Source of the DNA: a virus
Taxonomy: Duplodnaviria > Heunggongvirae > Uroviricota > Caudoviricetes
Reading direction: 5' to 3' (one strand)
DNA length: 31,209 bases
IMG/VR virus record: IMGVR_UViG_3300029719_000311
Span: 1 to 31,209 of that record
The notes beneath the pieces were generated by a model. That model was not told where the DNA came from. It did no database searches and worked only from the letters and a program-made list of their open reading frames with translations. Below are positions 1,369-27,549 of this stretch, in pieces (position 1 is the stretch's first letter; every line of letters begins with the position of its first letter). Position numbers and translations under genes: made by a program.

Positions 1369-1444
1369 GCCGATATAGCTCAGTTGGTAGAGCAGCGCAT
1401 TCGTAATGCGAAGGTCGTAGGTTCGACTCCTATTATCGGCACCA
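1369..1444 (+). tRNA. thrW: tRNA-Thr (anticodon CGT), thrW-like
   Basis: 76-nt sequence GCCGATATAGCTCAGTTGGTAGAGCAGCGCATTCGTAATGCG...GGTTCGACTCCTATTATCGGCACCA with cloverleaf features: acceptor stem GCCGATA/TATCGGC, anticodon loop TTCGTAA, T-loop GGTTCGA, 3' CCA. Confidence 0.95.
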
Positions 1445-1445
1445 T
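1399..1445. repeat. att core, left copy (3' part of thrW, anticodon loop to 3' end)
   Basis: 47 bp identical to 21863..21909; integrase gene starts 14 bp downstream. Confidence 0.85.
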
Positions 1446-1458
1446 TTAAATCAATAAG

Positions 1459-2622
1459 TTACACATCATTAGTACCTTCCTTATTTTTTGACTGGGACAA
1501 ATTTGGGACCGATGGGTTCAGGATCGAGTCTATTTGCCGTGCGTGTTCGGTAAGGTGATTAGGTGCAAGGTGAGCATATCGACGAACCATTTCGATAGAC
1601 TCCCAGCCTCCCATTTCCTGTAACACTGACAACGGGACTCCGGCTTGAACCAGCCAACTTGCCCAGGTGTGTCTCAAGTCGTGAAATCTGAAATCATCAA
1701 TACCAGCCCGTCTCAGCGCCGCTTTCCAGGCTGTGTTTGCGTCATACCGCATCTTCCTTACTGTTGGCGCTTTCGTTCCGTCTGGTTTGGTACAGCTTTC
1801 CTTGTACACAAATACCCAACGGTGATGATTCCCGATTTGTTTTTTCAATACGCGACATGCAGTATCATTCAGCGCAACGCCAATTGCGCGGTTTGATTTA
1901 CTCTCTTCCGGGTTTATCCATGCCACCCGGCGCTGCATATCTATTTGTTGCCATTCAAGGTTGATGATGTTCGAGCGTCTTAAGCCTGTTGCCAGTGCAA
2001 ATTCAACAACAGACTTTAATGGCTCCGGACATTCATCAATCAGCCTTTGTGCTTCATGGGGCTCCAGCCAGCGGATCCGTTTATTCTTTGGTTGAGGCAC
2101 TTTAATAATTGGTGCCTTATCCAGCATTTTCCATTCACGCTCTGCGGCTCTTAGTAGGGCCTTTATAAATGAAAGATGCGTAGCCTTCGTTGCAACGGAC
2201 GCTGGTTTTGGCGTGTATTCTGGAACAGGTTTCCCTTTTTTTCTGCATGCTTCTGCCCTGAGTTTCCAGTTTTCCTCATGACGCCGGTTCGTCATTTTCT
2301 GCATTGCTGAATAAATTTTTGATTCAGTAATGTCTCTTAGTTGCATTCCTGCGAAATGTTGAAGCCAGAATCCGATCCGGCTTTTGTCATCGTCCAGTGA
2401 TTTTTTATGTGCTTTCTCTTCAAGCCACCTGACACACGCTTCCTCGAACGTTATATCAGGTATTTCACCAAGTTTGCTGACCCGCCATGCTTCAGCCTTT
2501 AGCTTGTCATGGAGTTCTGTCGCCTGCCTTTTGTCCTTTGTTCCAAGAGACTGTTTAAATCTTTTACCGTTCGGCAATGTGAAACTGGCGTACCATATTT
2601 CACCTCTGCGGAAGAGTGACAT
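1459..2622 (-). CDS. int: Tyrosine integrase, P22 Int-like (387 aa)
   Basis: Translation [46 protein letters not shown]... ending ...[39 protein letters not shown] with tyrosine-recombinase R..H..R..Y pattern; adjacent to tRNA att site; P22 Int is known to target thrW. Confidence 0.95.
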
Positions 2623-10952: not shown

Positions 10953-12755
10953 GTGACCGTGAGAGCACTACTGACCCCTGAAATTGCCCCGCGTATGGGG
11001 ATCGTATTGTTCAGACCAGGTTCAGAGCTGATGCCCCTGTTTATGCAGGGGCGTGTCCTGCTGGAGCCTGAGCCGGAACGTTATTCATCTTTCGCCAGTG
11101 GTGCTGTTCCGGCGGCATCACAACCGCTGGCGGATGATCCTGCCGTTCGGGCCGTGTTCCGCAATGAGGCAGTGATCCGTCGTGCTGGTGGCGTGGAATG
11201 TCTTGAAAGCTGGTTACTTCGTGAAAAAGGCTGCCAGTGGCCTCATTCCGACTGGCACAGCGAGAACATGACCACAATGCGACACGCGCCGGGTGCAATC
11301 CGTCTGTGCTGGCACTGCGATAACCAGCTGCGCGATCAGTTCACGGAACGGCTGGAATCAATGGCAACGGATAACTGTGCCCGCTGGGTGTTGTCTGTTG
11401 TGCGTCGGGATCTCGGTTTTGATGACAGTCACGTTGTGACAATGCCGGAACTGTGCTGGTGGCTGGTTCGTAATGACCTGGCGGGAGCCTTGCCGGAAAG
11501 TGCAGCCCGTAAGGCACTGAGATTACCGAAGCCTGTTGTGCCGTCTGTCACCCGGGAAAGTGACCTTGTTCCTTCGGTTCCTGCCACCAGCATCATCCAG
11601 GATAAAGTGAAAAAGGTGCTGGCGCTGAAAGTGGATCCGGAGTCGCCGGAGTCTTTTATGTTACGCCCAAAACGTCGCCGCTGGGTTAACGAAAAGTATC
11701 TGGATTTTTTCAAAGGCGAGATAGGGAAAACCCATCTGGCTCAGGAGCTGTGGACGCAGATTGATAACGGTCAGCTTGCGCCTGACCTGGCTGAAATCAG
11801 GACATCCATTACGGATGTCAGCAATGAAATCACACAGACCGTCAATAAGAAACTGGAAGACCAGAGTGCAGCGATCCAGCAGATACAGAAGGTTCAGGTT
11901 GATACAAATAATAATCTGAACAGCATGTGGGCTGTGAAGCTGCAGCAGATGCAGGATGGACGCCTTTATATTGCGGGTATCGGTGCCGGTATTGAGAACA
12001 CCCCTGACGGCATGCAGAGTCAGGTGCTGCTGGCGGCGGACAGGATTGCGATGGTTAATCCTGCGAATGGCAACACAAAACCGATGTTTGTTGGTCAGGG
12101 CGATCAGATATTCATGAACGACGTGTTCCTGAAACGCCTGACGGCCCCCACCATTACCAGCGGTGGAAATCCACCGGCATTTTCCCTGACACCGGACGGA
12201 AAGCTGACCGCTAAAAATGCGGATATCAGTGGCAGTGTGAATGCGAACGCCGGGACGCTCAACAATGTCACGGTAAATGAAAACTGTACGATTAAGGGCA
12301 TGCTGGAGGCGACTCAGGTCAGAGGTGACTTCGTTAAAGCTGTATCCAAATCATTCCCGAAACAGGCTGGTACGTGGGGTAACACGGAAACACCAAACGG
12401 GACGGTTACAGTTACCATAAGCGATGATCATAACTTTGACCGTCAAATCATTATTCCGCCCATTATCTTTAACGGAATAGCGTATAGCGATCCGGGAAGT
12501 GGTAATAACCCGGGAGGTACAAGATACACGGGTTATGGTTTTGAAGTTCGCAAAAACGGTGTATTAATCGCATCCAGAGAAACTAAAGGGGCTATTCCCG
12601 GTAGCTACAGTGCGGTTATTGATATGCCGAGTGGCAGGGGAAGCGTCACTCTGGAGTTTAAGGTTTTCCATAAAGGCAATCAGTGGGCAGGTAATATCAC
12701 CGACTGTACGGTGATTGTGACCAAAAAAGCCGCTTCCGGCATCAGTATTCGTTGA
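10953..12755 (+). CDS. Chimeric ORF: N-terminal Cys/His-motif domain (DUF968-like early protein) fused to C-terminal tail-fibre J-like region
   Basis: GTG start adjacent to KilA-N stop; N-terminal about 280 aa contains CWHCDNQ; C-terminal about 300 aa is Gly/Thr/Asn-rich tail-fibre-like sequence; immediately followed by lom-stf-tfa as in the lambda J-lom-stf-tfa order. Confidence 0.55.
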   Translation: MTVRALLTPEIAPRMGIVLFRPGSELMPLFMQGRVLLEPEPERYSSFASGAVPAASQPLADDPAVRAVFRNEAVIRRAGGVECLESWLLREKGCQWPHSDWHSENMTTMRHAPGAIRLCWHCDNQLRDQFTERLESMATDNCARWVLSVVRRDLGFDDSHVVTMPELCWWLVRNDLAGALPESAARKALRLPKPVVPSVTRESDLVPSVPATSIIQDKVKKVLALKVDPESPESFMLRPKRRRWVNEKYLDFFKGEIGKTHLAQELWTQIDNGQLAPDLAEIRTSITDVSNEITQTVNKKLEDQSAAIQQIQKVQVDTNNNLNSMWAVKLQQMQDGRLYIAGIGAGIENTPDGMQSQVLLAADRIAMVNPANGNTKPMFVGQGDQIFMNDVFLKRLTAPTITSGGNPPAFSLTPDGKLTAKNADISGSVNANAGTLNNVTVNENCTIKGMLEATQVRGDFVKAVSKSFPKQAGTWGNTETPNGTVTVTISDDHNFDRQIIIPPIIFNGIAYSDPGSGNNPGGTRYTGYGFEVRKNGVLIASRETKGAIPGSYSAVIDMPSGRGSVTLEFKVFHKGNQWAGNITDCTVIVTKKAASGISIR

Positions 12756-12824
12756 AATTGTTATAACCCATATAAGGGCACCAGAAATGGTGCCTTTTTT
12801 ATTGCAGAAAAGCGAGAGGTAATT

Positions 12825-13424
12825 ATGCGTAAACTTTATGCCGCCATTTTGTCCGCAGCCATTTGTCTGGCCGTATCCGGTGCGCCTGCATGGGCATCTG
12901 AACATCAGTCCACGCTGAGCGCGGGGTATCTTCATGCCTTGACGAACGTTCCCGGCAGCGATGATCTTAACGGGATTAACGTGAAATACCGTTATGAGTT
13001 TACGGACACACTGGGGCTGGTGACGTCATTCAGCTATGCAGGAGACAAGAATCGCCAGCTTACCCGTTACAGCGATACCCGCTGGCATGAAGATTCAGTG
13101 CGTAACCGCTGGTTCAGCGTGATGGCGGGGCCGTCTGTGCGCGTGAATGAATGGTTCAGCGCGTATGCGATGGCGGGTATGGCTTACAGCCGTGTTTCGA
13201 CTTTCTCCGGGGATTATCTCCGCGTAACTGACAACAAGGGGAAAACGCACGACGTGCTGACCGGAAGTGATGACGGTCGCCACAGCAACACGTCTCTGGC
13301 GTGGGGGGCTGGCGTGCAGTTTAACCCGACCGAATCCGTGGCCATTGATATTGCTTATGAAGGCTCCGGCAGCGGTGACTGGCGTACCAACAGTTTCATC
13401 GTGGGTGTCGGTTATAAATTCTGA
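12825..13424 (+). CDS. lom: Lom/Ail family outer-membrane beta-barrel protein
   Basis: Signal peptide [24 protein letters not shown], alternating beta-strand pattern, C-terminal ...VGVGYKF; position between J and stf. Confidence 0.85.
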
Positions 13425-13488
13425 TTAGCCAGGTAACACAGTGTTATGACAGCCCGCCGGTTCAGGCGGGCTTTTTTGTGGGGGGAAT

Positions 13489-15903
13489 ATGGCAGTAAAG
13501 ATTTCAGGTGTACTGAAAGACGGCACAGGAAAACCGGTACAGAACTGCACAATCCAGCTGAAAGCAAAACGTAACAGCACCGCGGTGGTGGTGAACACGC
13601 TGGCCTCAGAAAATCCGGATGAAGCCGGGCGTTACAGCATGGACGTTGAGTACGGTCAGTACAGCGTTATTCTGTTGGTGGAAGGGTTCCCGCCGTCACA
13701 TGCCGGGACCATCACCGTGTATGAAGATTCCCGACCCGGTACGCTGAATGATTTTCTCGGTGCCATGACGGAGGATGATGCCCGTCCGGAGGCTCTGCGC
13801 CGTTTTGAACTGATGGTGGAAGAGGTGGCGCGTAACGCGTCCGCGGTGGCACAGAACACGGCAGCCGCGAAGAAGTCAGCCGGCGATGCCGGCACATCTG
13901 CCCGTGAGGCGGCAACGAACGCGAAAGCGTCGGAAACCAGCGCAGAATCCTCAAAAACGGCTGCCGCATCGTCAGCCAGTTCGGCGGCGTCATCGGCATC
14001 ATCGGCGTCTGCTTCAAAAGATGAGGCGACCAGACAAGCGTCAGCAGCGAAGAGCAGCGCCACGACGGCATCCACGAAGGCGACAGAGGCTGCTGGCAGT
14101 GCGACGGCGGCAGCTCAGAGCAAAAGTACGGCAGAATCCGCAGCAACGCGCGCCGAGACAGCAGCAAAACGGGCAGAGGATATTGCATCCGCCGTGGCGC
14201 TTGAGGATGCGAGCACGACGAAAAAGGGGATAGTACAGCTCAGTAGTGCGACTAACAGCACTTCCGAGTCACTGGCGGCAACACCAAAAGCCGTTAAGGC
14301 CGCGTATGACCTGGCTAACGGGAAATACACCGCACAGGATGCAACGACAGCACAGAAAGGGATAATCCAGCTAAGCAGCGCGACCAACAGCACGTCTGAA
14401 ACGCTTGCCGCGACACCAAAGGCAGTAAAAGCAGCCAATGACAATGCTGAGAAACGTCTGCAGAAAGATCAGAACGGTGCGGATATCCCTGGCAAAGATA
14501 CCTTTACGAAAAATATTGGTGCCTGCCGTGCCTTCGGTGGGTCAGTAAGCACAACAACAGGAAACTGGACGACTGCACAGTTTATCGAGTGGCTGGATTC
14601 TCAGGGAGCATTTAACCATCCATACTGGATGTGCAAGGGTTCCTGGTCTTATGGCAATAATAAAATCATTACTGATACTGACTGCGGTAATATTCATCTC
14701 GCCGGAGCTGTCATTGAAGTAATGGGGATAAAGTCAGCGATGACGATCCGCATTACCACACCGACCACCTCCACTGGTGGTGGAACAACTAACGCCCAGT
14801 TTACCTATATCAATCACGGAACAGATTATTCACCTGGCTGGCGAAGGGACTATAACTCCAGAAATAAGCCAACGGCATCAGAGATCGGGGCGTTACCGTC
14901 AGGTGGAACAGCAGTATCATCAGTTAATCTGGCTTCAAAAGGTCGGGTAACCGCGCTGACAGACAATACGCAGGGGGCAGCAGGTCTTGAGTTATACGAG
15001 GTGTATAACAACGGATATCCAACAGCGTATGGAAATATCATTCACCTGAAAGGGATGACAGCCGTTGGCGAAGGTGAGTTACTCATCGGCTGGAGTGGTA
15101 CAAGCGGTGCTCATGCTCCGGCATTTATTCGTTCACGACGGGATACGACCGACGCAAACTGGTCGCCGTGGGCGCAGCTTTACACCTCGGCTCATCCTCC
15201 TGCAGAGTTTTATCCAGTCGGTGCACCAATCCCGTGGCCATCAGATACCGTTCCGTCTGGTTATGCCCTGATGCAGGGGCAGACTTTTGACAAATCTGCA
15301 TACCCGAAACTTGCAGTTGCTTATCCGTCAGGCGTGATCCCTGATATGCGTGGCTGGACGATTAAGGGCAAGCCCGCCAGTGGTCGGGCCGTATTATCTC
15401 AGGAACAGGACGGCATTAAATCGCACACCCACAGCGCCAGCGCATCCAGTACGGATTTGGGGACGAAAACCACATCGTCGTTTGATTACGGAACCAAATC
15501 CACGAATAACACCGGGGCGCATACCCATAGTATTAGCGGGACCGCAAATAGTGCCGGTGCGCACCAACACAAGAGTTCCGGTGCATTTGGTGGCACGAAC
15601 ACGAGCATTTTCCCTAATGGTTATACCGCGATTTCAAATCTAAGCGCGGGGATTATGAGCACAACAAGCGGTAGTGGCCAGACTCGTAATGCAGGGAAGA
15701 CATCATCAGATGGTGCTCATACCCACTCGCTGTCCGGCACTGCTGCAAGCGCAGGCGCACATGCACATACTGTCGGTATTGGTGCTCATACGCACTCCGT
15801 TGCGATTGGTTCACATGGACACACCATCACCGTTAACGCTGCTGGTAACGCGGAAAACACCGTCAAAAACATCGCATTTAACTATATTGTGAGGCTTGCA
15901 TAA
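13489..15903 (+). CDS. stf: Side tail fibre protein Stf
   Basis: N-terminal [30 protein letters not shown]...; Ala/Ser-rich coiled region; duplicated KGI(V/I)[11 protein letters not shown](S/T)[11 protein letters not shown] segments; C-terminal His-rich GAHTHS/GAHAH repeats. Confidence 0.85.
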
Positions 15904-16487
15904 TGGTATTCAGAATGAGTGAACAACCACGGACCATAACAATTTATAATCTGCTGGCCGGAACTAATGAATTTATTGGTGAAGGTGATGCATATATTCC
16001 GCCTCATACAGGTCTGCCAGCAAACAGTACCGATATTGCACCGCCAGATATTCCGGCAGGCTTCGTGGCTGTTTTCAACAGTGATGAGGCATCGTGGCAT
16101 CTCGTTGAAGATCATCGGGGTAAAACGGTTTATGACGTGGCTTCCGGCGACGCGTTATTTATTTCTGAACTCGGTCCGTTACCGGAAAATGTTACCTGGT
16201 TATCGCCGGGAGGGGAATATCAGAAGTGGAACGGCACAGCCTGGGTGAAGGATACGGAAGCAGAAAAACTGTTCCGGATCCGGGAGGCGGAAGAAACAAA
16301 AAACAGCCTGATGCAGGTAGCCAGTGAGCATATAGCGCCGCTTCAGGATGCTGTAGATCTGGAGATCGCAACGGAGGAAGAAAACTCGTTGCTGGAAGCC
16401 TGGAAAAAGTATCGGGTGTTGCTGAACCGTGTTGATACATCAACTGCACCGGATATTGAGTGGCCTGCTGTCCCTGTTATGGAGTAA
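15903..16487 (+). CDS. tfa: Tail fibre assembly protein Tfa
   Basis: TAATG overlap with stf; ...[68 protein letters not shown]... typical Tfa N-terminal region. Confidence 0.8.
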
Positions 16488-16973
16488 TCGTTTTGTGATA
16501 TGCCGCAGACACGTCGTATGCAGAAACGTGCTGCGGCTGGCTGGTGAACTTTCAATAGTGCGAGTATTGAATGATTTCCAGCTGTTATCGATTTTATGTG
16601 TTTTTTGCATGAGGGGATTTCCACCACCTCCCACCGACCATCTAAGACTTTATGCCACTGTCCCTAGGACTGCTATGTACTAGGAGCGGATGTTAAACTC
16701 AGACTCGTTTCAGCTACATTGCGTTTTGAATAATATTCCATCATAATAACTCTTTGAAAAATGTGATCTTTTCATTTATAACACTGATGACTTGCTTATC
16801 TCATTGGGATATCGGAGGAGAATACTTAACTATGACAAGCCCGATTATTATGACACTGGCTATATTATATAGATTGATATTAAAATGTAGGATTAGGTTC
16901 TTGCCAAGGTGTCAAGATTTACAGATAGGTTTAAAACCATATAAATATGTTTTACGGTGAGATACAATACATA

Positions 16974-17000
16974 TTGTAAGGCATAAACGCTTGGTAAAAT
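16974..17000 (+). promoter_or_regulatory. Candidate sigma70 promoter with extended -10 upstream of the large NTPase gene
   Basis: TTGTAA (16974..16979), 15-nt spacer, TGgTAAAAT (16992..17000); 25 bp upstream of the ATG at 17025. Confidence 0.3.
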
Positions 17001-17024
17001 TTTAATTATTGGAAGAAGCTAATC

Positions 17025-20000
17025 ATGGAACCCATATCAATTACAGTGGCAACTTATGTAGCAACTAAACTTATTGATCAATTCATCTCTCAAGAAGGAT
17101 ATGGTTGTATTAAGAAAGCATTATTCCCCCAAAAAAGATATGTGGATAGATTATATCAACTAATTGAAGAGACGGCAATTGAGTTTGAAGAAACATATCC
17201 AGTAGAAAGTGGAGCAATACCATTTTATCATTCCGAACCATTGTTTGAGATGTTGAATGAGCACATCTTTTTTAAAGAGTTCCCTGACAAAGAGATATTA
17301 TTAGACAAGTTCAAAGAATATCCAAGTATCACTCCCCCAACTCAACAACAACTCAGCCTTTTTTATGAGATGTTATCATTAAAAATCAATAATTGTTCGA
17401 AGTTAAAAAAGCTACATATCGAAGAAACGTATAAAGAAAAAATATTCGATATTAATGAAGAGCTCATTCAAGTCAAACTTATTTTACGGTCTATAGATGA
17501 GAAACTAACTTTTCACTTAAGTGATGATTGGTTAAATGAAAAAAATAGTCAAGCAATAGCTGACTTGGGAGGTCGATACACACCCGAACTCAACGTAAAG
17601 CTAGAAATAGCAGAGATATTTGATGGCCTCGGTAGAACTAATGATTTTTCTAAAATATTTTATTCGCATATAGATAGCTTTCTGGTCGCTGGAAAGAAAT
17701 TACATAGTTGCGATGTAATTTCCTCAGAATTATTTGAAATAAACCAGTCCTTAAAAGAAATTTCTGATATATATCAGGAGATTAATTTTTCTAAATTAGA
17801 TGAAATCCCTATAAATAAATTTAATAACTATGTTTCTAGCTGCCAGACAGCTATTGGCGGAGCGGTATCAATATTGTGGGAACTCCGAGAAAAGTCAGAG
17901 CAAGTAGGTGAAACCAAGCATTACAGTGATAAGTATTCATCTACTCTGCGAATGCTTCGGGAATTTGACTATGCGTGCAATGAATTACGTATATTCATTA
18001 ATTCAACAACAGTGAAGTTGGCTAACAACCCATTCTTACTTCTCGAAGGAAAAGCAGGAATTGGTAAGTCTCATTTACTGGCTGATGTGATTAAAAATCG
18101 AATTGCTTCTGGGTATCCTTCACTACTCATACTAGGGCAACAACTTACTTCAGATGAATCTCCATGGTCACAAATCTTCAAGAGATTACAGCTTAAAATC
18201 ACTTCTCGTGAATTCCTAGAAAAACTGAATTTATATGGCAAAAAAACAGGAAAAAGAGTCTTAGTTTTTATTGATGCTATTAATGAAGGTAATGGAAATA
18301 AATTCTGGAATGACAATATTAACAGTTTTGTCGATGAAATCAGATGCTTTGAATGGCTTGGTCTGATAATGTCAGTCAGAACAACATATAGAAATGTAAC
18401 AATTTCACATGAGAATGTTGTGCGAAATAATTTTGAAATTCATGAACATATTGGATTCCAGAACGTTGAGTTGGAAGCGGTTAGTCTATTTTATGATTAT
18501 TACAATATTGAGAGGCCTTCATCTCCTAACCTTAATCCAGAGTTTAAAAATCCTCTATTTCTTAAGTTATTGTGTGAAGGCATTAAGAAAAATGGTTTAA
18601 CCAAAGTGCCTGTTGGATTTAATGGGATTTCAAATATTTTTAACTTTTTAGTTGAAGGGGTAAATAAATCATTAGCATCGCCAAGAAAATATGCATTCGA
18701 TCCCAGTTTTCCTCTTGTTAAAGATGCTCTCAATGAAATCATAAAATTCAAATTAGAGATTGGTCGTAATAGTATTTCACTTAAAGATGCTCACTCAGTG
18801 GTTCAATCTGTAGTTAATGATTATGTTGCTGATAAAACCTTCCTCAGCGCCTTGATTGACGAAGGATTATTGACTAAAGGCATAGTGAGAAATGATGATA
18901 ATTCTACTGAGGAAGTAGTTTATGTGGCTTTTGAAAGGTTTGATGATCATTTAACTGTTAATTTTTTATTAAATGATGTTGAAAATATCGAAAGTGAATT
19001 TAAGCCTGATGGTCGTCTGAAAAAATATTTTCATGATGAATGTGATTTTTATATAAAATCGGGAATAGTAGAGGCGTTGTCTATTCAATTGCCAGAAAGG
19101 TATGAAAAAGAGCTTTATGAATTTCTGCCGGAGTTCAGCAATAATCTTAAATTACTAGAAGCCTTTATTGATAGCTTGATATGGCGCGATATTAAGGCTA
19201 TTGATTTCGAAAAAATTAGACCTTTCATCAATGAACATGTTTTTAAATTTAAAGATAGTTTTGATCATTTCCTCGAGGCAGTGATCTCTATTTCAGGTTT
19301 AGTTGGCCATCCCTTTAATGCTAATTTCTTGCATGATTGGCTAAAAGATTATTCTTTGGCAAATCGAGATTCGTTTTGGACTACAGAACTTAAATATAAA
19401 TATAGTGAAGACTCAGCATTTAGGCATCTAATCGATTGGGCATGGGCCAGAACAGATAAAAGCTTTGTTTCGGATGAGTCAATCGAGCTAGTTGCAACTA
19501 GTTTATGCTGGTTTTTAACTTCTAGTAACCGAGAACTTCGAGATTGCTCAACTAAGGCTTTAGTGAGTTTACTCGAGCCAAGAATTCCTGTATTGAGAAA
19601 AATAATTGATAAGTTTTATGGTGTAAATGATCCTTACGTTTGGGAAAGAATATTTGCAGTTGCATTAGGCTGTACATTGCGAACTGATAATATTAAAGAA
19701 CTAAAATATTTAGCCGAAACTGTTTACCAAAAGGTATTTTGTTCTAAGTATGTGTATCCAAATATATTACTTAGAGATTATGCTAGAGAGATTATTGAAT
19801 TTGCTAATCATCTTGGATTGGAACTTGAAAGCATTGAATTATCCAAGACTAGACCACCCTACAACAGCATTTGGCCTGACAAGATTCCTTCAAAAGAGGA
19901 ACTAGAGTCCCTTTATGATAAAGAACCTTATCGGGAACTCTGGAGCTCTATTATGGAAGATGGTGACTTTTCACGATATACTATTGGAACAAATTATAAT

Positions 20001-21479
20001 CATTCTGATTGGTCTGGTTGCAAGTTTAATGAAACCCCTGTTGACCGTAAGCAAGTTTTTAAAACTTTCAAATGTAAACTAACTGATCAACAAAAAGACT
20101 TGTATGATGCCACAGATCCTTTCATTTATGATGATAAATGCGAAGGAATTAAATTTGGTCGTGTGGTCGGTAGAAAATCACAGGAAGAAATAAAGGCGAG
20201 CAAGAAATTATTTAAGAATTCATTGTCATACGATCTGTTAAGTGAGTTTGAAAATGAAATAGAGCCATACCTGGATCATAATAATAATCTGCTGGAAACT
20301 GATAAACACTTTGATCTTCGACTAGCTCAACAATTTATATTCAATCGTGTTATAGAGCTTGGTTGGGATCCGGAGAAGCATGGTAATTTTGACCAACAAA
20401 TAGGAACTGGACGTGGACGTAGAGAGGCATTCCAAGAACGGATTGGTAAAAAATACCAATGGATTGCTTATTATGAATACATGGCAAGGCTAGCCGATAA
20501 TTTTACTCGTTTTGAAGGTTATGGTGACGAACGAAAGGAAAATCCATACCAAGGGCCATGGGAGCCTTACGTAAGAGATATAGATCCCACTATCTTACTT
20601 AAAGAAACTGGAACGAAAAAAATAAGCAATAAAGAAATGTGGTGGCTTAATGATGAAGTGTTTGATTGGACTTGCTCTAATGAAGACTGGGTTAAAAGTT
20701 CTACTACTATAACTAATTCATATGCTTTTATTGAAGTTAAAGATGATAATGGTGATGAATGGATAGTATTAGAAAGTCATCCATCATGGAAAGAACCAAA
20801 AATTATTGGAAACGATGATTGGGGGCACCCACGAAAAGAGGTTTGGTATCAGATCAGAAGTTATATCGTTAAAGTTGAAGAATTTGAAAATTTTAGATGT
20901 TGGGCAATAGCTCAAGACTTTATGGGCAGGTGGATGCCGGAATGTACTGATAGATACCAATTATTTAATAGGGAGTACTATTGGTCCGAAGCATTTAAGT
21001 CTTTTAAATCAGATTATTATGGTGGATCTGACTGGACTTCGGTAACAGACCGGGAGTCTGGAGCTAAGATAGCTGATGTTAGTGTCACTTCGATTAATTA
21101 TTTGTGGGAAGAGGAGTTCGACAAATCAAAAATAGAAACTTTGAATTTTTTGAAGCCTAGTAACTTAATCTTTGAAAAGATGGGATTAAAAAGTGGGGAA
21201 GTAGAGGGTAGCTTCAATGATGAAAATGGAACTATGGTTTGCTTTGCAGCTGAAGCTGTATATGCTTCAAAGCCGCATCTACTTGTTAAAAAAGAACCAT
21301 TTTTAACAATGTTAAGGGACAATGGTTTTGAAATCGTTTGGACATTATTAGGTGAAAAGGGCGTTATAGGGGGCTCACTCATATCAAGTCATCATTATGG
21401 TCGACAGGAGTTTAGTGGAGCATTTTATTATGAAGACAGTCAGCTAACAGGAAGTCATAAAACTAGCTTTACGAGATAA
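17025..21479 (+). CDS. Large P-loop NTPase with NACHT/STAND-like motifs (1484 aa); candidate antiphage defence protein
   Basis: Walker A GKAGIGKS (18048..18071), Walker B VLVFIDAINEG (18258..18290), downstream IMSVRTT sensor-1-like motif; about 330-aa N-terminal and about 1050-aa C-terminal helical extensions; low GC versus neighbours; located between tfa and attR. Confidence 0.6.
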   Translation: MEPISITVATYVATKLIDQFISQEGYGCIKKALFPQKRYVDRLYQLIEETAIEFEETYPVESGAIPFYHSEPLFEMLNEHIFFKEFPDKEILLDKFKEYPSITPPTQQQLSLFYEMLSLKINNCSKLKKLHIEETYKEKIFDINEELIQVKLILRSIDEKLTFHLSDDWLNEKNSQAIADLGGRYTPELNVKLEIAEIFDGLGRTNDFSKIFYSHIDSFLVAGKKLHSCDVISSELFEINQSLKEISDIYQEINFSKLDEIPINKFNNYVSSCQTAIGGAVSILWELREKSEQVGETKHYSDKYSSTLRMLREFDYACNELRIFINSTTVKLANNPFLLLEGKAGIGKSHLLADVIKNRIASGYPSLLILGQQLTSDESPWSQIFKRLQLKITSREFLEKLNLYGKKTGKRVLVFIDAINEGNGNKFWNDNINSFVDEIRCFEWLGLIMSVRTTYRNVTISHENVVRNNFEIHEHIGFQNVELEAVSLFYDYYNIERPSSPNLNPEFKNPLFLKLLCEGIKKNGLTKVPVGFNGISNIFNFLVEGVNKSLASPRKYAFDPSFPLVKDALNEIIKFKLEIGRNSISLKDAHSVVQSVVNDYVADKTFLSALIDEGLLTKGIVRNDDNSTEEVVYVAFERFDDHLTVNFLLNDVENIESEFKPDGRLKKYFHDECDFYIKSGIVEALSIQLPERYEKELYEFLPEFSNNLKLLEAFIDSLIWRDIKAIDFEKIRPFINEHVFKFKDSFDHFLEAVISISGLVGHPFNANFLHDWLKDYSLANRDSFWTTELKYKYSEDSAFRHLIDWAWARTDKSFVSDESIELVATSLCWFLTSSNRELRDCSTKALVSLLEPRIPVLRKIIDKFYGVNDPYVWERIFAVALGCTLRTDNIKELKYLAETVYQKVFCSKYVYPNILLRDYAREIIEFANHLGLELESIELSKTRPPYNSIWPDKIPSKEELESLYDKEPYRELWSSIMEDGDFSRYTIGTNYNHSDWSGCKFNETPVDRKQVFKTFKCKLTDQQKDLYDATDPFIYDDKCEGIKFGRVVGRKSQEEIKASKKLFKNSLSYDLLSEFENEIEPYLDHNNNLLETDKHFDLRLAQQFIFNRVIELGWDPEKHGNFDQQIGTGRGRREAFQERIGKKYQWIAYYEYMARLADNFTRFEGYGDERKENPYQGPWEPYVRDIDPTILLKETGTKKISNKEMWWLNDEVFDWTCSNEDWVKSSTTITNSYAFIEVKDDNGDEWIVLESHPSWKEPKIIGNDDWGHPRKEVWYQIRSYIVKVEEFENFRCWAIAQDFMGRWMPECTDRYQLFNREYYWSEAFKSFKSDYYGGSDWTSVTDRESGAKIADVSVTSINYLWEEEFDKSKIETLNFLKPSNLIFEKMGLKSGEVEGSFNDENGTMVCFAAEAVYASKPHLLVKKEPFLTMLRDNGFEIVWTLLGEKGVIGGSLISSHHYGRQEFSGAFYYEDSQLTGSHKTSFTR

Positions 21480-21862
21480 AAATGAATCTCAGAGCTGAAT
21501 ATATAAGTAGTATTAGAAACCGGGTTATACTTAAGAAATCAATCTTAAGTGTGGCAGTCGAATGGTAGCTAATATGCTAGCGGCGCTAATGCCTGTTTGT
21601 TGCTCATAACAGGCATTCACTTTAGTTATGGCAGAAAAGTATACATGCTGGGTTGGGAAAGTGTGAAAGAAAGGAAGATTGCTGCGCCGTTTGTCGTCAC
21701 GTTTATCTTCATTGGCTATGCAAGTCGTAATAAAAGGTGGGACAAAACTGAGACACATAAAGCCTCGCAATGGCTTGCAAGGCTTTACATGTTTTGATGT
21801 GGTGGGACGTGTGAGCGCAGTGTTGATGGGGTAATGCTTTGAATTAGAAGCGGATTCTTATA

Positions 21863-21909
21863 ATTCGTAATGCGAAGGTCGTAGGTTCGACTCCTATTAT
21901 CGGCACCAT
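21863..21909. repeat. att core, right copy (attR of element 1 / attL of element 2)
   Basis: 47 bp identical to 1399..1445 (partial thrW 3' end ATTCGTAATGCGAAGGTCGTAGGTTCGACTCCTATTATCGGCACCAT). Confidence 0.9.
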
Positions 21910-22072
21910 CACCTAGTTTTCCCAAGTCAACCCACATCAACAAAATCATTTAAAAACATATATATTACGTTGTTTTCATACGTTTGAGGTCAACCCTTGT
22001 CTCTTGAAATCAACACGCGGTTGGGGGCACAATCAGGGGCATGTTCTGTTCGATCTAGGAAATGTGCCCCCA

Positions 22073-23263
22073 ATGATGCTGAATGCCCGCAAGGTTGAAG
22101 CTGCGAAAGGAAAAGAGAAGAGCTACAAGCTGTTTGATGGAGGTGGCCTATACCTTCAGGTCGAACCTAATGGCTCGCGTTACTGGCGTATGAAATACCG
22201 TTTTGCTGGTAAAGAGAAACGATTGTCCTTTGGTGTTTATCCAACAGTCACACTTGCTGATGCCAGACAAAAACGAGAAGACGCGAAGAAACTACTCGCA
22301 GCAGGTGAAGATCCCGGCGAAGTCAAAAAAGCCAAAAAGCAGGCTTTAAATGCAGCGAGTGAGACACTTAACCCATTCAGAGAAGTGGCGTTAGAGTGGC
22401 ACAAAATGAAATCACCCAAATGGTCTGAGGGCTATGCTTCCGACATCATTGAGGCATTCGAGAAAGACATTTTCCCGCATATTGGGCACAGACCTATAGC
22501 TGATATTCAGCCCCTTGAACTGCTTGAAGTTCTGAGGTTGATAGAAGCTCGAGGCGCTATGGAGAAAGCGAAGAAAGTCCGTCAGCGATGCGGTGAAGTT
22601 TTTCGCTATGCCATCGTAACGGGTAGGGCAATCTACAATCCGGCACCGGATCTTGCCAGTGCGATGCAAGGACATGAAGCAGTCCACTATCCATTCCTCA
22701 AAGCCAACGAACTACCGGAGTTCTTTAATGCCCTTAATTCTTATTCAGGAAGTCCAATTGTATTGTTGGGGGCGCATTTACTTATCCTGACAGGTCTACG
22801 AACTGGAGAACTACGAGCAGGTGAGTGGCGAGAGGTGGATTTTGATAATGCGGTGTGGGAGATCCCAAAAGAACGTATGAAAATGCGTAGGAGCCATATT
22901 GTCCCGTTGTCAAAACAAGCATTATCCCATCTCAAAAGTTTGAAAGAACTAACTGGGAACTACCCGCTGATGTTCCCTGGACGCAACGATCCCAGCAAAT
23001 TTATGAGTGAAGCAAGCATTAATCAGGTGTTTAAACGTATTGGATATGCAGGGCGTGTTACGGGGCATGGTTTCAGGCATACGATGAGTACAATCCTACA
23101 TGAGAAAGGATTTAACAGCGCTTGGATTGAAACCCAGCTTGCTCATTCGGACAAAAACTCTATTCGTGGAATTTATAACCATGCCCAATATCTCGAAGGG
23201 AGAAGAGAAATGATGCAATGGTATGCTAATTATTTATCTGAGCAAATTGGTACTCATAAATGA
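22073..23263 (+). CDS. Tyrosine integrase, P4-type
   Basis: ...KEKSYKLFDGGGLYLQVEPNGSRYWRMKYRFAGKEKRLSFGVYPTVTLADARQKREDAKKLL... N-terminal arm-binding pattern of P4-family integrases; C-terminal ...GHGFRHTMSTILHE... catalytic region; true start probably ATG at 22073/22076 rather than ORF start 22004. Confidence 0.9.
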   Translation: MMLNARKVEAAKGKEKSYKLFDGGGLYLQVEPNGSRYWRMKYRFAGKEKRLSFGVYPTVTLADARQKREDAKKLLAAGEDPGEVKKAKKQALNAASETLNPFREVALEWHKMKSPKWSEGYASDIIEAFEKDIFPHIGHRPIADIQPLELLEVLRLIEARGAMEKAKKVRQRCGEVFRYAIVTGRAIYNPAPDLASAMQGHEAVHYPFLKANELPEFFNALNSYSGSPIVLLGAHLLILTGLRTGELRAGEWREVDFDNAVWEIPKERMKMRRSHIVPLSKQALSHLKSLKELTGNYPLMFPGRNDPSKFMSEASINQVFKRIGYAGRVTGHGFRHTMSTILHEKGFNSAWIETQLAHSDKNSIRGIYNHAQYLEGRREMMQWYANYLSEQIGTHK

Positions 23264-24084
23264 ATATTTTAAAAATTAATAATACTGATTCTCTGCTCAG
23301 AGATTACTACCAGTTGGATGAAGCTTCAGAAAAAATTGGTTGTAGTGAAAAGGATATACTCTGGTTTGCCAGAGAACGAGATGTAGAGCTATGCATGGAA
23401 TTCCATGATGATGAGTATGATGTTTCATGTGGTTTGAAGATTGATGGTCAAATAGATGAGTTCTTATCTAATCTGAAATATTTACCACGAGATAGAAATG
23501 GCAATATTATGTTGTCAGACTTAAGTTCTATAAGAATCCCTGATGAAGATAATTTAATTGATAAAAATGGTTTTATTCGATGCTTCATATCCGGTTTATG
23601 GGCTGTTGATTATGAATATAAAGATCTGTTAGTTAAGCATGAGGGGCAACCGGATTCCTGGCCTATTCATTTTCTACTGGCGGGTACGCCTAATATAAAT
23701 TGTAAGGTAATTCTTTATGTAAATTATGATGAAAAAGAAAATTATTATCTTTTTGAGGTTTTGTGGATTACAAAGGTACAGATTCAAAAATTCATTGATA
23801 TAGTCTTATGCGAACAAAAGCGGATAAAAAACGCCAATAAATATAAATCACAATCTGAGGCGCAAAAACAAAAACATGCTGTTCCTCGAGCTGAAATACT
23901 CATGGCTATTATTTCGCTCTATCATCGTGATATGAGGCTAAGAAGAGAGAGTCCAGCAGCGATAGCTGATTATCTTTTTCAACATGCCAGTGAGTTCTGG
24001 CCTAAGACCGGAGAACCGCCTTTGAGCTATGATACTGTTGTTAGTTTGCTACGTAGTTGCATGAAAAACATTAAGTTTAACTAA
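23260..24084 (+). CDS. Hypothetical low-GC cargo protein (274 aa), translationally coupled to integrase
   Basis: ATGA overlap with int stop; strongly AT-rich relative to int; no recognisable motifs. Confidence 0.5.
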   Translation: MNILKINNTDSLLRDYYQLDEASEKIGCSEKDILWFARERDVELCMEFHDDEYDVSCGLKIDGQIDEFLSNLKYLPRDRNGNIMLSDLSSIRIPDEDNLIDKNGFIRCFISGLWAVDYEYKDLLVKHEGQPDSWPIHFLLAGTPNINCKVILYVNYDEKENYYLFEVLWITKVQIQKFIDIVLCEQKRIKNANKYKSQSEAQKQKHAVPRAEILMAIISLYHRDMRLRRESPAAIADYLFQHASEFWPKTGEPPLSYDTVVSLLRSCMKNIKFN

Positions 24085-24209
24085 ATATTAACAATTGTTG
24101 TGGCTAATGATTTTGAATTTTTTTCATTAGTCACATTTTTCTCATTTATAACCTATGTTTTAATTTTCCGTGTTGAAGCCAATAGACTTAGATAAACGGA
24201 GAATGATGA

Positions 24210-24500
24210 ATGTTATCTAAACATGATAATACTACTTTGCAACGACCTTCAATGGATTCTCTGATCGATATGAAGTTTATTACTTCCGATTGTTTATTAA
24301 GTGATAAATGGATTTATCGATTGATTTCTCTGAATCGCTTTCCAAAACCTATAAAAATAGGTCGGATGTCACGATGGCGCGCTGCTGATTATTATAAGTG
24401 GCGAGATGGGTTTGAAGAAAACTCAGGTCAACAGTTTGAGGGGATGAGAAATAAGGCAAGAGCAATTAATAAAGGGAATAGATTATCACCTACTCCCTAA
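24210..24500 (+). CDS. AlpA-family phage regulatory protein (Vis/excisionase-like)
   Basis: ...LISLNRFPKPIKIGRMSRWRAADYYKWRDGF... fits the AlpA pattern (FPKP.K.G..S.W); GGAGA RBS 8 nt upstream. Confidence 0.55.
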   Translation: MLSKHDNTTLQRPSMDSLIDMKFITSDCLLSDKWIYRLISLNRFPKPIKIGRMSRWRAADYYKWRDGFEENSGQQFEGMRNKARAINKGNRLSPTP

Positions 24501-24706
24501 GCCTTAATTGATAGTTAGTAATATTTAACTGATTAGCCTTTAGGGTCAATCCCGCGTGATTGGAGTTCTTTGCGTAAAATTCTTTTAATCCAAGTTGCCA
24601 ACGCGCTATCTCCATCTTTGCGCATTTCGTTTTCGAGTTGCAACCTAAAATCGTCGGTAAGACGCATTTGGAATGGTGGAGAACGTTTCTCTTGTGGTGT
24701 TGACAT
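24491..24706 (-). CDS. Putative Arc/Mnt-like ribbon-helix-helix regulator (71 aa); not in the supplied ORF track
   Basis: Hand-translated minus-strand ORF MSTPQEKRSPPFQMRLTDDFRLQLENEMRKDGDSALATWIKRILRKEL...; PPFQMRLTDD resembles the Arc N-terminal beta-strand; start codon lies within one of two GGTAATTACC palindromes. Confidence 0.4.
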
Positions 24707-24746
24707 GGTAATTACCCTAGAATATGATGACTACATGGTAATTACC
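24707..24746. promoter_or_regulatory. Two 10-bp palindromes GGTAATTACC spaced 30 bp apart (candidate operators)
   Basis: CATGGTAATTACC repeated at 24704..24716 and 24734..24746, overlapping the RHH gene start. Confidence 0.4.
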
Positions 24747-24837
24747 ATTGTAAGTATAGTTCGCTTGTAAAAGCAATGCCCGATTGTGCGGGAACACAAA
24801 TCGGGCATTTAACCAACCGTTATAAGAGGTAACGAAG

Positions 24838-25014
24838 ATGGCTAAACAGAAGTGTACCTGGTTATTTGCGGCGATCAACCGCAGTCAACGCAATGCCCGT
24901 CCTGTGATGTTAAGGATCACCGCAGATAACGAGCGGTCAGCGCGGCGCAGACTTGCCCCGGACTATGTACTGAGCTTTGCCGGGCGCATTCCCTGCGGAG
25001 GTGAACATGCGTAA
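24838..25014 (+). CDS. Small protein (58 aa), Icd-like position in a P4-like element
   Basis: Hand-translated MAKQKCTWLFAAINRSQRNARPVMLRITADNERSARRRLAPDYVLSFAGRIPCGGEHA; AAGAGG RBS; overlaps the next gene start by 8 nt. Confidence 0.4.
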   Translation: MAKQKCTWLFAAINRSQRNARPVMLRITADNERSARRRLAPDYVLSFAGRIPCGGEHA

Positions 25015-25366
25015 TTATCCGCATCCCGGCGAACGCTGGCAGCATGAACGTGGCTGGACGGTCACGATTATCCGATTAATAGAAGCCTCGCCCTCTGTGG
25101 CGCTGGTTAATCCTGAATTCAGCTGTGAAGTGCTGATACGTCATGACAGCGACAACCAGCTTTCTTCCTGCCCTCTGGCATGGTTTGAACAGCGATATAC
25201 GCGCCTGTTTGATGTACCGCTCTTTAAGCCTGCACCAGCTCCTGCAGGCGGTAGTGGTTCCGGCCCGCTGACACTGCATCCGTCTGTGCTATTTATCCGC
25301 TGGCGGGAGCGTAGCATATGGCGTTCTGCTGAGCCTGATGACGGTCACTATTCAAAGTTTCTCTGA
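25007..25366 (+). CDS. Hypothetical protein (119 aa)
   Basis: ATG preceded by GGAGG at 6-nt spacing; GC-rich; function unknown. Confidence 0.45.
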   Translation: MRNYPHPGERWQHERGWTVTIIRLIEASPSVALVNPEFSCEVLIRHDSDNQLSSCPLAWFEQRYTRLFDVPLFKPAPAPAGGSGSGPLTLHPSVLFIRWRERSIWRSAEPDDGHYSKFL

Positions 25367-25602
25367 CACAATACCGCTGAAAACGGAGTAATCCACGATG
25401 AATATTTCAAACGGGCACAACGGTGCTCAGGGCCACACTTTGCCTGAAAAACACAATACCTGCTGCCCTCCACTGATGGCAAACTCCAGACAACCATTCG
25501 CCCGCCAGAGATGAATCCCCGCAGGCTCTATGTCTTCAACAGCGAGGTGCCGGGTTAAGGCTTTGCGTGAGTCTTATTTATTAAGGGTAACAGGTGAAAC
25601 AG

Positions 25603-25780
25603 GTGGAACAACCGTATTTTACAGGGCTGAACCTGTTCCACCTTCTGAAATAGTGAGGTGGAACAGATGTAACGCCAGCCAATCCGCTGTTCCACCTTGT
25701 TACCCGCGATGTTTCACCGGTGCAGTGTATATAAATGTCTTATAAAACAAAGCTGTAACACATGTTTCACCTGTTCCACC
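25603..25780. repeat. Iteron cluster TGTT(C/T)CACC in both orientations (P4 ori/crr-like)
   Basis: About 8 copies (25603, 25612, 25633, 25657, 25688, 25710, 25763, 25772) flanking an AT-rich core; P4 ori/crr use TGTTCACC octamers bound by the alpha primase. Confidence 0.55.
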
Positions 25781-25868
25781 GCATCAGGGACATAAAGCAG
25801 ACTGAAACAGAGGGCATTTTTATCTGGCTGGCTTTCATAGCCACGTCTGAATAACCGCAAGCGCCCGT

Positions 25869-25924
25869 TGTGCCAGCCACCACACACTGAACACCGATAG
25901 TGTGCTTGTGTCAGCCACGACACA
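25869..25924 (+). promoter_or_regulatory. Candidate Ogr/Delta-activated late promoter (two TGT-N12-ACA dyads)
   Basis: TGTGCCAGCCACCACACA at 25869..25886 and TGTGTCAGCCACGACACA at 25907..25924, 35-90 bp upstream of the sid-like ATG. Confidence 0.4.
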
Positions 25925-25958
25925 ATTGACGTAACGAACCAACCCGACAGGAGAAGTC

Positions 25959-26702
25959 ATGAACAATACCGCAGTAAATAACAACCTTTCCACTTTTCCG
26001 GCTGTAACGCAGCGGGCACTGGAAACCATGAACACAGCCAGAAACGCATGGCTTGAAGCACGTCGTCAGCAGAAAGCGGCAGCGGATAATATTGCGACAA
26101 TCCGCCAGCGTCGCGCTGAAATGGAAGCCACGACGAACACACTGAATGAGGAGTGGCGCACGCTGTTTCGTGAAAGTCAGGGCGTGGTCTCAAAGGAAAT
26201 GAAAAAACTGCGCACGGAAATTGCGCTGGGACGAGAAACGCTTGAGGATTTTGATGAGCTGCTGGCGGCTCAGGAAAGCGAAAATGCACTTTTGCCGCAG
26301 AAAGCTGCAGAATTAGCCGGAAAGTATATCCACGCGCATAACATTCTTGTGGATATTCGCGCAAAACAAATCTGGGAGGATTTTATGCAGTCGCATGGAA
26401 AAGCGCTTATTCAGACGCTGAGCCTGCTTAAATCCACAATGGGCCGGGAAGCCAGTGCCGTTGTGGGTGTGGTGAATTCAGTTAATGACCCGGACACAGT
26501 GCTGAAAGACTTTATTCATAAACATATCACCAGACCGGCTCTGGCTAACGATGCGATGCCTGAGCAGGACCCGGTGTTTAAACTGGCGGGAGTTGCCCCG
26601 GATTATGCGGCGCGTCTGGATTTCAGTAATCAACTCTCTCCGGCAGCTATGCATAAAATTAAGGTTCGTCAGGAACTTGCTGAGAAGGAGAAAGCAGTAT
26701 GA
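25959..26702 (+). CDS. Sid-like capsid size determination protein (247 aa)
   Basis: Helical 247-aa protein (P4 Sid is 244 aa), first gene of the operon ending in an ogr/delta gene; AGGAG RBS. Confidence 0.5.
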   Translation: MNNTAVNNNLSTFPAVTQRALETMNTARNAWLEARRQQKAAADNIATIRQRRAEMEATTNTLNEEWRTLFRESQGVVSKEMKKLRTEIALGRETLEDFDELLAAQESENALLPQKAAELAGKYIHAHNILVDIRAKQIWEDFMQSHGKALIQTLSLLKSTMGREASAVVGVVNSVNDPDTVLKDFIHKHITRPALANDAMPEQDPVFKLAGVAPDYAARLDFSNQLSPAAMHKIKVRQELAEKEKAV

Positions 26703-27250: not shown

Positions 27251-27255
27251 TATTA

Positions 27256-27528
27256 ATGGCACTTAAATGTCCGGAATGCGGTACAGTTGCACACGCCAGA
27301 ACAGCAGCCTATGAAGCTCCGTCAGTTAAACGCTCGTGGTATCAGTGCCAGAATCTGGAATGTTCCTGCACATTTACGGCACTGGAGAGTGTGGATAAGA
27401 TAATCATGAAACCCCGGCGCAATGAACAGGAACCAGACAAATCACAACCCCCGGTAAAACAACAGCAAACGCTCAATCGCTATGGCTCCGCGTCAAAACT
27501 GTCAAGCCGTCAGCAGATTCCTGTCTGA
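27256..27528 (+). CDS. Ogr/Delta-family zinc-finger late transcription activator
   Basis: MALKCPECGTVAHARTAAYEAPSVKRSWYQCQNLECSCTFTALESV matches the Ogr pattern C-P-x-C-x4-HART...Y-x-C-Q-N-x-x-C-S-x-T-F; start at ATG after AGGAG rather than track GTG at 27247. Confidence 0.85.
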   Translation: MALKCPECGTVAHARTAAYEAPSVKRSWYQCQNLECSCTFTALESVDKIIMKPRRNEQEPDKSQPPVKQQQTLNRYGSASKLSSRQQIPV

Positions 27529-27549
27529 TTAGAAAAAAACGCCCACGTA

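Follow-up and report, generated by a model that had tools for sequence, protein, structure and literature searches.

A predicted EcAvs2 allele carried as a low-GC moron in a defective thrW lambdoid prophage

Described relatives of the encoded protein

EcAvs2 (WP_063118745.1) is so named in two independent papers. According to one of them (Evans et al. 2026, bioRxiv 10.64898/2026.04.30.721860), it was first used by Gao et al. (2020, 2022). It has been shown to defend against T7, PhiV-1, ZL19 and Pal009, and its K348A variant loses the defence against Pal009, T7 and PhiV-1 (Evans et al. 2026). In the structure of EcAvs2, which was solved at 2.3 Å (PDB 9O4E), the TPR domain and the C-terminal sensor bind the ATPase domain of the large terminase via a bridging ATP, the helical extension adds to the terminase interface, and the terminase-bound protein forms a C4 tetramer; the purified protein assembles with terminase without any partner (Evans et al. 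2026). The effector is absent from the cryo-EM map and no activity was found for it, and the first 15 residues have been likened to amyloid signalling proteins (Evans et al. 2026).

KpAvs2 from Klebsiella pneumoniae, which shares the Avs2-family STAND NTPase and sensor with the protein described here, has the large terminase and Ksap1 as activators, also responds to Ksap2 and some terminase nuclease domains, and acts by abortive infection (Bechon et al. 2024, PMC11564622). However, the N-terminal part of KpAvs2 is a DNA-degrading nuclease of the Mrr family, whereas the present protein has a rarer, non-nuclease helical effector, and the KpAvs2 gene shares an operon with Avap1 and Avap2, whereas the present avs2 stands alone. 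An Mrr-like nuclease effector is typical of most Avs2 proteins and does not define the family; as the defining parts of the family are the NTPase and the sensor, membership in Avs2 stands without it.

SeAvs3 from Salmonella enterica (PDB 8DGC) is likewise a terminase-sensing STAND protein which tetramerises on binding and has a C-terminal sensor subdomain in common with EcAvs2, but it differs in its TPR domain, in having an elongated rather than flat tetramer and a nuclease effector, and in recognising the terminase by its folded nuclease domain. Avs6, Avs7, STAND_DAS50 and Novel_PIN (Evans et al. 2026, Table S4) contain the same all-helical N-terminal module (about 165 aa), in which the hydrophobic core positions are shared. 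In the NTPase and sensor they show at most a distant relationship to EcAvs2, and the PIN class is without a STAND match.

Identity of the 1484-aa protein

The window, i.e. the whole analysed stretch of 31,209 nt (IMG/VR record IMGVR_UViG_3300029719_000311), contains one ORF of 1484 codons with an ATG start (Table 1). A stop-free run of this length has a probability of about 10^-54 given the base composition of the ORF, and the longest runs in the remaining five frames of the region are at most 122 codons. The product scores 1689.2 bits against the NCBIfam Avs2 equivalog NF041813 (cutoff 1000 bits), covering profile positions 1–1317 of 1317, and 1752 bits against the PADLOC Avs2 model PDLC02164 (aa 22–1483), while PDB 9O4E chain A matches it over all 1484 aa with 3443 bits. 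It is equal in length to EcAvs2 and identical to it at 1482 of 1484 positions (99.87%), the only differences being R554 (nt 18685), where EcAvs2 has lysine, and S1052 (nt 20178), where EcAvs2 has alanine. Both positions are variable among Avs2 homologues, and serine at 1052 is the state in homologues of 68–70% identity. The gene is labelled avs2 by PGAP (RefSeq) in 87 of 5426 complete E. coli genomes. Judged by its sequence, the ORF is almost certainly avs2, an allele of EcAvs2 encoding a single-protein STAND NTPase that serves as an anti-phage pattern-recognition receptor and is carried as a low-GC prophage moron. The finding is real yet already known, because the trigger, structure and defence activity of the near-identical EcAvs2 have been published.

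Table 1. Features of the avs2 locus and its prophage, in positions of the window
Feature	Position	Strand	Basis or remark
tRNA-Thr(CGU) thrW	1369-1444		3' end = att core
attL, 47-nt core	1399..1445	+	Inside and just past the tRNA 3' end
Prophage integrase beside attL	1459..2622	-	phrog_10426, E=1e-120
Tail fibre assembly gene tfa	15903..16487	+	Caudo_TAP, E=3.3e-44; directly upstream of the cassette
avs2 cassette (moron), low GC	16650..21862	+	From end of shared lambdoid sequence to attR
68-codon TTG ORF	16754..16960	+	Judged non-functional or dispensable
Upstream 120 nt	16905..17024	+	Published defence construct needs no more for native expression; Table S1 insert maps exactly
Candidate sigma-70 promoter	TTTACA 16918-16923, 16-nt spacer, TATAAA	+	Consensus resemblance only
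avs2 coding sequence	17025..21479	+	Predicted allele of EcAvs2 WP_063118745.1 / PDB 9O4E, 1484 aa
N-terminal effector module, aa 1-165	17025..17519	+	All-helical AF2 model; common to other defence proteins
Helical extension, ~aa 166-330 (approximate boundaries)	17520..18014	+	NCBIfam/PADLOC model starts; Evans et al. 2026
Walker A GKAGIGKS, aa 342-349	18048..18071	+	Motif position
Walker B region VLVFIDAINEG, aa 412-422	18258..18290	+	Motif position
Part of TPR / C-terminal sensor with published contact residues	19965..21410	+	Residue positions
attR, 47 nt	21863..21909	+	Perfect direct repeat of attL

The preliminary description, made from the sequence alone, had proposed an Avs-type STAND sensor with effector, NTPase and sensor parts, carried as a moron at the right end of a thrW prophage, and the Avs2 models and the identity to EcAvs2 bear this out. 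Its placing of a single giant ORF between tfa and attR is confirmed by the coordinates, the Caudo_TAP match of tfa and the 47-nt att repeat. On the other hand, its terms "uncharacterised" and without a named family do not hold, as the protein is assigned to Avs2 by curated models, bears the RefSeq name avs2 and is nearly identical to the solved protein. That reader was unable to name the protein because Pfam yields only sub-threshold P-loop/STAND matches on it.

Domain organisation and conserved residues

As expected from the full-length identity to EcAvs2, the protein has a tripartite architecture of an N-terminal effector, a STAND NTPase with Walker A and B motifs, and a C-terminal TPR domain followed by a beta-rich sensor. 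The Walker A motif contains K348, and D417, which is kept in true Avs2 homologues, is likely the Walker B aspartate. The three motifs reported in the preliminary description are all present, with the sensor-1-like IMSVRTT at residues 448–454. [quoted passage not shown]

The NTPase had been called NACHT-style. Its sequence indicates a STAND NTPase, whereas the assignment to NACHT is without Pfam support: the NACHT family (PF05729) reaches 13.1 bits against a gathering threshold of 26.7 and covers aa 338–357 only. The best Pfam match of the whole protein, nSTAND6, is also sub-threshold (18.4 bits; cutoff 27.7). The proposed check with models of defence families thus turned out in favour of PADLOC Avs2, with Pfam NACHT below its threshold. 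The N-terminal domain of about 330 aa described earlier does exist as a region, but it is composite, an effector module being followed by a helical extension, each of about 165 aa; the NCBIfam Avs2 model begins at aa 178 and the PADLOC models at aa 163–164.

The N-terminal effector module

Structure prediction, which had been suggested as a means of identifying the effector fold, did not do so: the AF2 model of residues 1–165 is all-helical (pLDDT 82.2) and has no fold match in the PDB. No Pfam family matches these residues, 42 diverse effector modules scanned with Pfam show no recurrent family, and no nuclease family, including an Mrr-like effector, is found in the Pfam search of the protein. 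The module has 333 representative homologues and is N-terminal in every one. Its conserved positions are hydrophobic or aromatic, and conserved catalytic residues are absent from it, in line with Evans et al. 2026. Since there is only hydrophobic conservation, without a catalytic motif or a known fold, the module is most likely non-enzymatic. No neighbouring partner gene, such as the executioner of amyloid-signalling (BASS/Bell-type) NLR systems, which repeats the short N-terminal amyloid motif of the NLR, is present beside avs2 in the window.

The module may be a new non-enzymatic cell-death effector that is toxic when clustered fourfold by the tetramer, a proposal which is plausible but on balance doubtful. 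Possible routes to toxicity are membrane perturbation by an amphipathic N-terminal helix, and capture of a host factor. Residues 6–23 are helical in the AF2 model (pLDDT 65–70). A transmembrane anchor at residues 1–25 was considered and rejected, as the hydrophobicity value KD19 is 1.09, under the threshold of about 1.6, which is exceeded in only 7 of 42 homologues; a simple model of membrane insertion therefore lacks direct support. The module is also found in PIN-domain proteins bearing a candidate effector of their own, which leaves room for an adaptor rather than a toxic role. A split arrangement, with an effector ORF and a separate NTPase-sensor ORF, was likewise considered for the homologous loci L002 and L003 and dismissed, as the frames are broken by frameshifts at G5 and A8 runs and the homology spans the frame change.

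Upstream region and alternative explanations

The 120 nt upstream of avs2 are the same as in the published native EcAvs2 construct, and they contain a candidate sigma-70 promoter. A consensus scan for promoters and terminators finds sites no more numerous than in shuffled sequence. A weak ribosome-binding site (GGAAGAAG) lies ahead of avs2. The small hydrophobic ORF further upstream had been put forward as a possible partner or leader. The TTG ORF does exist, and it contains an internal ATG at 16832 with GGAGGAG 11 nt upstream, so that a two-gene system with this product as partner, leader or membrane effector of Avs2 could be imagined. However, the defence-competent native insert of EcAvs2 starts at window position 16905 and excludes both starts, 16754 and 16832 (Evans et al. 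2026); because this functional construct begins 3' of both, the ORF appears to be dispensable. Furthermore, purified EcAvs2 assembles with terminase by itself, tblastn finds no counterpart of the ORF upstream of the homologues of 68–70% identity (L002–L005), the PGAP annotation of the best-matching genome lacks it, and Pfam, PADLOC and NCBIfam give no match to it. A role for it is accordingly given very little credence.

A slightly larger, though still small, probability attaches to a decaying or inactive allele, in which R554 and S1052 are disabling. The host prophage is defective and has lost about 22 kb, and frameshifted avs2 homologues occur elsewhere (L002, L003), but here the ORF and all published functional residues are intact, and the K/R and A/S exchanges are conservative, fall at variable positions and, in the case of S1052, match distant homologues. 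That the protein is a novel NACHT/STAND defence protein belonging to no named family is scarcely credible: Pfam by itself would leave it unnamed, yet curated Avs2 models match it end to end, only two residues separate it from a solved and functionally characterised protein, and its gene bears the name avs2 in RefSeq. An ATPase with a housekeeping role or a structural role in the phage, e.g. a terminase, helicase or packaging motor, could be suspected from the P-loop NTPase core and the adjoining phage tail genes but can be dismissed outright. The Pfam and NCBIfam searches give no match to a terminase or helicase family, the homology named earlier as grounds for abandoning the defence assignment; the PADLOC and NCBIfam models of Avs2 match over the full length instead, and the gene lies in a low-GC insertion that is missing from most related prophages. 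The EcAvs2 allele is thus the preferred reading.

Proposed mechanism

On the model of the reference protein, for which these steps have been shown, Avs2 would stay idle until a tailed phage makes its large terminase, whereupon the helical extension, the TPR domain and the C-terminal beta-rich sensor would close around the terminase ATPase domain and an additional, bridging ATP would occupy the contact surface. With ATP bound, the NTPase domains would next build a flat C4 tetramer, and defence against the four phages named above would result, with Walker A K348 being needed. Tetramerisation is predicted to gather four N-terminal 165-aa helical modules, the clustering of which would kill or arrest the cell by abortive infection. 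The avs2 gene in the window would be expressed from its own promoter inside the 120 nt upstream. In E. coli, DNA of low GC content may be subject to silencing.

Prophage setting

The GC content of the avs2 ORF is 0.343 versus 0.527 in the phage genes at 6432–16487, as the preliminary description had noted in saying that it was far below that of the flanking genes. Other E. coli lambdoid prophages are homologous only up to about 16620–16650, and the cassette from there up to attR at 21909 is common to 87 genomes. The gene thus lies as a moron at thrW inside att-bounded DNA, is foreign in composition and is missing from related prophages. This avs2-bearing prophage is a deletion derivative of a lambdoid prophage that carries avs2 elsewhere, and the large terminase is gone from the copy in the window.

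The value of this avs2 is modest and contextual, given that the gene is in RefSeq and detected by PADLOC and NCBIfam, and that the phenotypes, trigger and structure of the reference have been published; it documents that EcAvs2 naturally resides in a lambdoid prophage at thrW, as a moron that follows tfa. It also raises the questions of how an induced prophage copes with a sensor of the terminase which it encodes itself, and how a non-nuclease effector kills. Intact lambdoid prophages, e.g. the thrW prophage of strain DETEC-E223 (large terminase WP_074527427.1), hold both avs2 and their own large terminase. The prophage is adjoined by a P4-like satellite with DRT3, giving tandem mobile elements that each carry a defence system.

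Identity of the avs2 product

The avs2 gene is an ATG ORF of 1484 codons on the + strand (17025-21479), as found by ORF calling on the window. A stop-free run of this length has a chance probability of ~10^-54 given the ORF's own base composition (stop-codon probability 0.080), and the longest run in the remaining five frames is ≤122 codons. Its GC content is 0.343, compared with 0.527 across the phage genes of 6432-16487, and a perfect 47-nt repeat (attR, 21863-21909) lies 3' of it, the first copy of which (attL, 1399-1445) represents the 3' end of tRNA-Thr(CGU) (1369-1444). The ORF, the three motifs listed in the table, the low GC content and the position between tfa and attR, all noted in the preliminary description, are confirmed, and both the class proposed there (STAND-type antiphage sensor) and the genomic logic (prophage cargo) are correct.

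The protein looks unplaceable by eye because its Pfam matches are only sub-threshold: nSTAND6 scores 18.4 bits (cutoff 27.7), NACHT scores 13.1 bits (cutoff 26.7), and all P-loop/STAND matches fall below threshold. The curated, defence-specific Avs2 models match it unambiguously, namely PADLOC Avs2 (PDLC02164; 1752 bits, aa 22-1483) and the NCBIfam equivalog NF041813 "AVAST type 2 anti-phage system protein Avs2" (1689 bits against a cutoff of 1000, whole profile covered). The PDB sequence search matched a single chain, 9O4E_A "Avs2", also of 1484 aa, which aligns end to end (3443 bits). The cassette in E. coli DETEC-E223 is identical to that of the window except for two nucleotides, and its protein is WP_063118745.1, which is listed as EcAvs2 both by Wein et al. 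2023 (bioRxiv 10.1101/2023.05.28.542683) and by Evans et al. 2026 (Table S1/S4; bioRxiv 10.64898/2026.04.30.721860). Only two residues set the window protein apart from it, R554 (reference K) and S1052 (reference A); both positions are variable within the Avs2 family, and 68-70%-identical homologues likewise have S at 1052. The earlier label "uncharacterised" is thus wrong; judged by sequence, the window gene is EcAvs2 itself bar two residues, hence already known and not a new member or variant. PGAP names the gene avs2 in every genome listed; of the 5426 complete E. coli genomes, 87 contain 80% or more of the 5.5-kb region.

Avs2 homologues with 68-70% identity and the same effector occur in Photobacterium leiognathi (locus L002, 556-5030) and in a metagenome (locus L003, 7001-11480), where gene calling splits each of them into two ORFs (189+1296 aa and 133+1339 aa, respectively). 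The reading frame shifts by +/-1 at a G5 run and at an A8 run, with homology continuing across both; a sequencing error, a pseudogene or a slippage-prone site could each account for this. In contrast to the window protein, Klebsiella pneumoniae Avs2 (KpAvs2) has an Mrr nuclease effector and an Avap1/2 operon, while Salmonella enterica Avs3 (SeAvs3) has a nuclease effector and forms an elongated tetramer; these differences have already been described in the literature.

Features of the window in and around the avs2 prophage
Feature	Position	Remarks
Defective lambdoid prophage	1399-21909	att-bounded element, 20.5 kb
In-frame fusion ORF	10953-12755	DUF968 gene (N-terminal 254 aa) + J C-terminal part; junction ~11697
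Tail fibre assembly gene (tfa)	15903-16487	directly 5' of avs2 region; Caudo_TAP, E=3e-44
Small ORF	16754-16960	68 codons, TTG start; upstream of avs2
GKAGIGKS	aa 342-349 of avs2 protein	
VLVFIDAINEG	aa 412-422 of avs2 protein	
IMSVRTT	aa 448-454 of avs2 protein	
P4-like satellite	22004-31209	directly past attR
Satellite integrase	22004-23263	
274-aa ORF	23260-24084	directly past satellite integrase; GC ~0.35
Two Psu-family genes of satellite	25959-26702, 26699-27250	
drt3a (DRT3)	27923-29200	PADLOC E=6e-131
drt3b (DRT3)	29191-31209	PADLOC E=2e-203

Sensing and oligomerisation

EcAvs2 defends E. coli against T7, PhiV-1, ZL19 and Pal009, and protection is lost in the Walker A mutant K348A (Evans et al. 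2026). In proteome-wide co-expression screens of PhiV-1 and ZL19, the large terminase was the sole gene triggering toxicity, its ATPase domain being sufficient, while Ksap1 (Pal009) and vs.8 (T4) are further activators (Evans et al. 2026). The purified protein oligomerises only with terminase, and cryo-EM at 2.3 A shows a flat C4 tetramer in which each protomer binds one terminase. The pocket is built from the TPR domain, the beta-rich sensor at the C-terminus and a helical extension lying between the effector and the NTPase, and a third, "bridging" ATP is held via T1128, R1132, E1364 and D981 (Evans et al. 2026). K348, D981, T1128, R1130, R1132, W1266, E1362, E1364, E1444 and E1462 are all found at the same positions in the window protein and are conserved in true Avs2 homologues. 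As every published functional residue is present and conserved, sensing and oligomerisation may be taken as established for the window gene from the reference protein.

N-terminal effector module

The effector (aa 1-165) shows no cryo-EM density in EcAvs2 and is called uncharacterised by the authors, who point to its lack of conserved polar residues and suggest a non-enzymatic function (Evans et al. 2026). Searching 1.84 billion representatives with a profile (E <= 0.001) gave 333 proteins; in every one the module occupies the extreme N-terminus, and their lengths fall into classes of ~870, ~1250 and 1400-1490 aa. The partners sampled comprise Avs2 proper, shorter proteins weakly similar to the Avs2 NTPase, an NB-ARC+TPR STAND protein, and one PIN-domain protein (PIN-TPR-GreABC) that lacks a STAND match, in agreement with the carriers in Table S4 of Evans et al. 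2026 (Avs2, Avs6, Avs7, STAND_DAS50 and Novel_PIN). Among 88 diverse sequences, conserved positions are nearly all hydrophobic or aromatic (F67, 100%; L127, 99%; L43 and P105, 97%; F113, 95%), and residues 1-33 retain only an amphipathic pattern. The AF2 model (42-sequence alignment; mean pLDDT 82, pTM 0.67) is all-helical, with helices at 6-23, 36-57, 71-83, 89-97, 107-123 and 125-164; the hydrophobicity of the N-terminal helix (KD19 = 1.09) is too low for a classical transmembrane segment, and no Pfam family turns up repeatedly in the 42 sequences. Our best inference, held with modest confidence, is a non-enzymatic toxic or adaptor module activated by proximity, and the present analysis adds nothing decisive to the authors' statements.

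Upstream region and promoter

The small ORF upstream of avs2 had been considered a possible partner or leader. It has no Shine-Dalgarno at its TTG start, while an internal ATG (16832) is preceded by GGAGGAG 11 nt upstream. It has no family match in Pfam, PADLOC or NCBIfam, and is not called in the PGAP annotation of the best-matching genome; tblastn detected no counterpart in front of the avs2 homologues of P. leiognathi and three metagenomic loci. Decisively, the published defence-competent "native" insert starts CAAGGTGTCAAG..., which maps to window 16905, 120 nt 5' of the avs2 ATG and downstream of both candidate starts. The small ORF is therefore dispensable, the partner or leader role does not hold, and the native promoter is located within 16905-17024, with TTTACA-N16-TATAAA (16918) as a candidate based solely on resemblance. 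In two marine metagenome contigs, a truncated avs2 remnant is preceded at a distance of ~360 nt by an identical 80-aa hydrophobic ORF (L004, 6402-6644; L005, 829-1071) with two predicted membrane-like segments, whose sequence is unrelated to that of the window's small ORF.

The thrW prophage and the adjoining satellite

The window begins in proA (aldehyde dehydrogenase family; proA-thrW synteny), followed by thrW, and the prophage encodes an integrase, a cI-like repressor, cII-like and O-like proteins, lom, stf and tfa. At the same proA-thrW site, DETEC-E223 harbours a near-complete lambdoid prophage with Q, lysis, large terminase, portal, capsid and tail genes, which carries the same avs2 (17538-21992 of region L001) together with the large terminase WP_074527427.1 (L006, NZ_CP116188.1 932475-934577), so that a terminase-sensing gene and a terminase share one prophage; this terminase may evade the sensor, or induction may limit itself. 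From this comparison, the window prophage has lost ~22 kb including the terminase. The fusion ORF, whose J portion comprises the receptor-binding part and the C-terminal tip of that tail protein, marks this deletion, in which Q, the lysis genes, the terminase, portal and capsid genes and most of the tail genes were lost; none of the 5426 complete E. coli genomes spans its junction. Sequence shared with other lambdoid prophages stops ~130-165 nt past tfa, which places the left edge of the avs2 moron near 16650. The gene for the O-like replication initiator (7340-8281) contains, at 7628-7750, a spaced 15-nt repeat (TCAAAATCTGACCCG-like) in six copies, whose arrangement resembles that of lambda-type origin iterons.

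Since the DRT3 satellite directly follows attR of the avs2 prophage, thrW holds two defence-carrying elements integrated in tandem. The DRT3 DNA has a very low GC content (0.27-0.31). Compared with that of DETEC-E223, the window satellite is ~3 kb shorter between integrase and drt3a and seems to be missing the TOPRIM/DUF927 primase. The 274-aa cargo ORF has no match in Pfam or PADLOC and is annotated as "hypothetical protein" (WP_001471076.1) in DETEC-E223. Just 5' of attR and ~275 nt past the avs2 stop lies a palindrome with an 18-bp stem (21753-21792), terminator-like on the minus strand in the scan and followed by TTTTG on the plus strand, which may terminate avs2 transcription or insulate avs2 from the neighbouring element.
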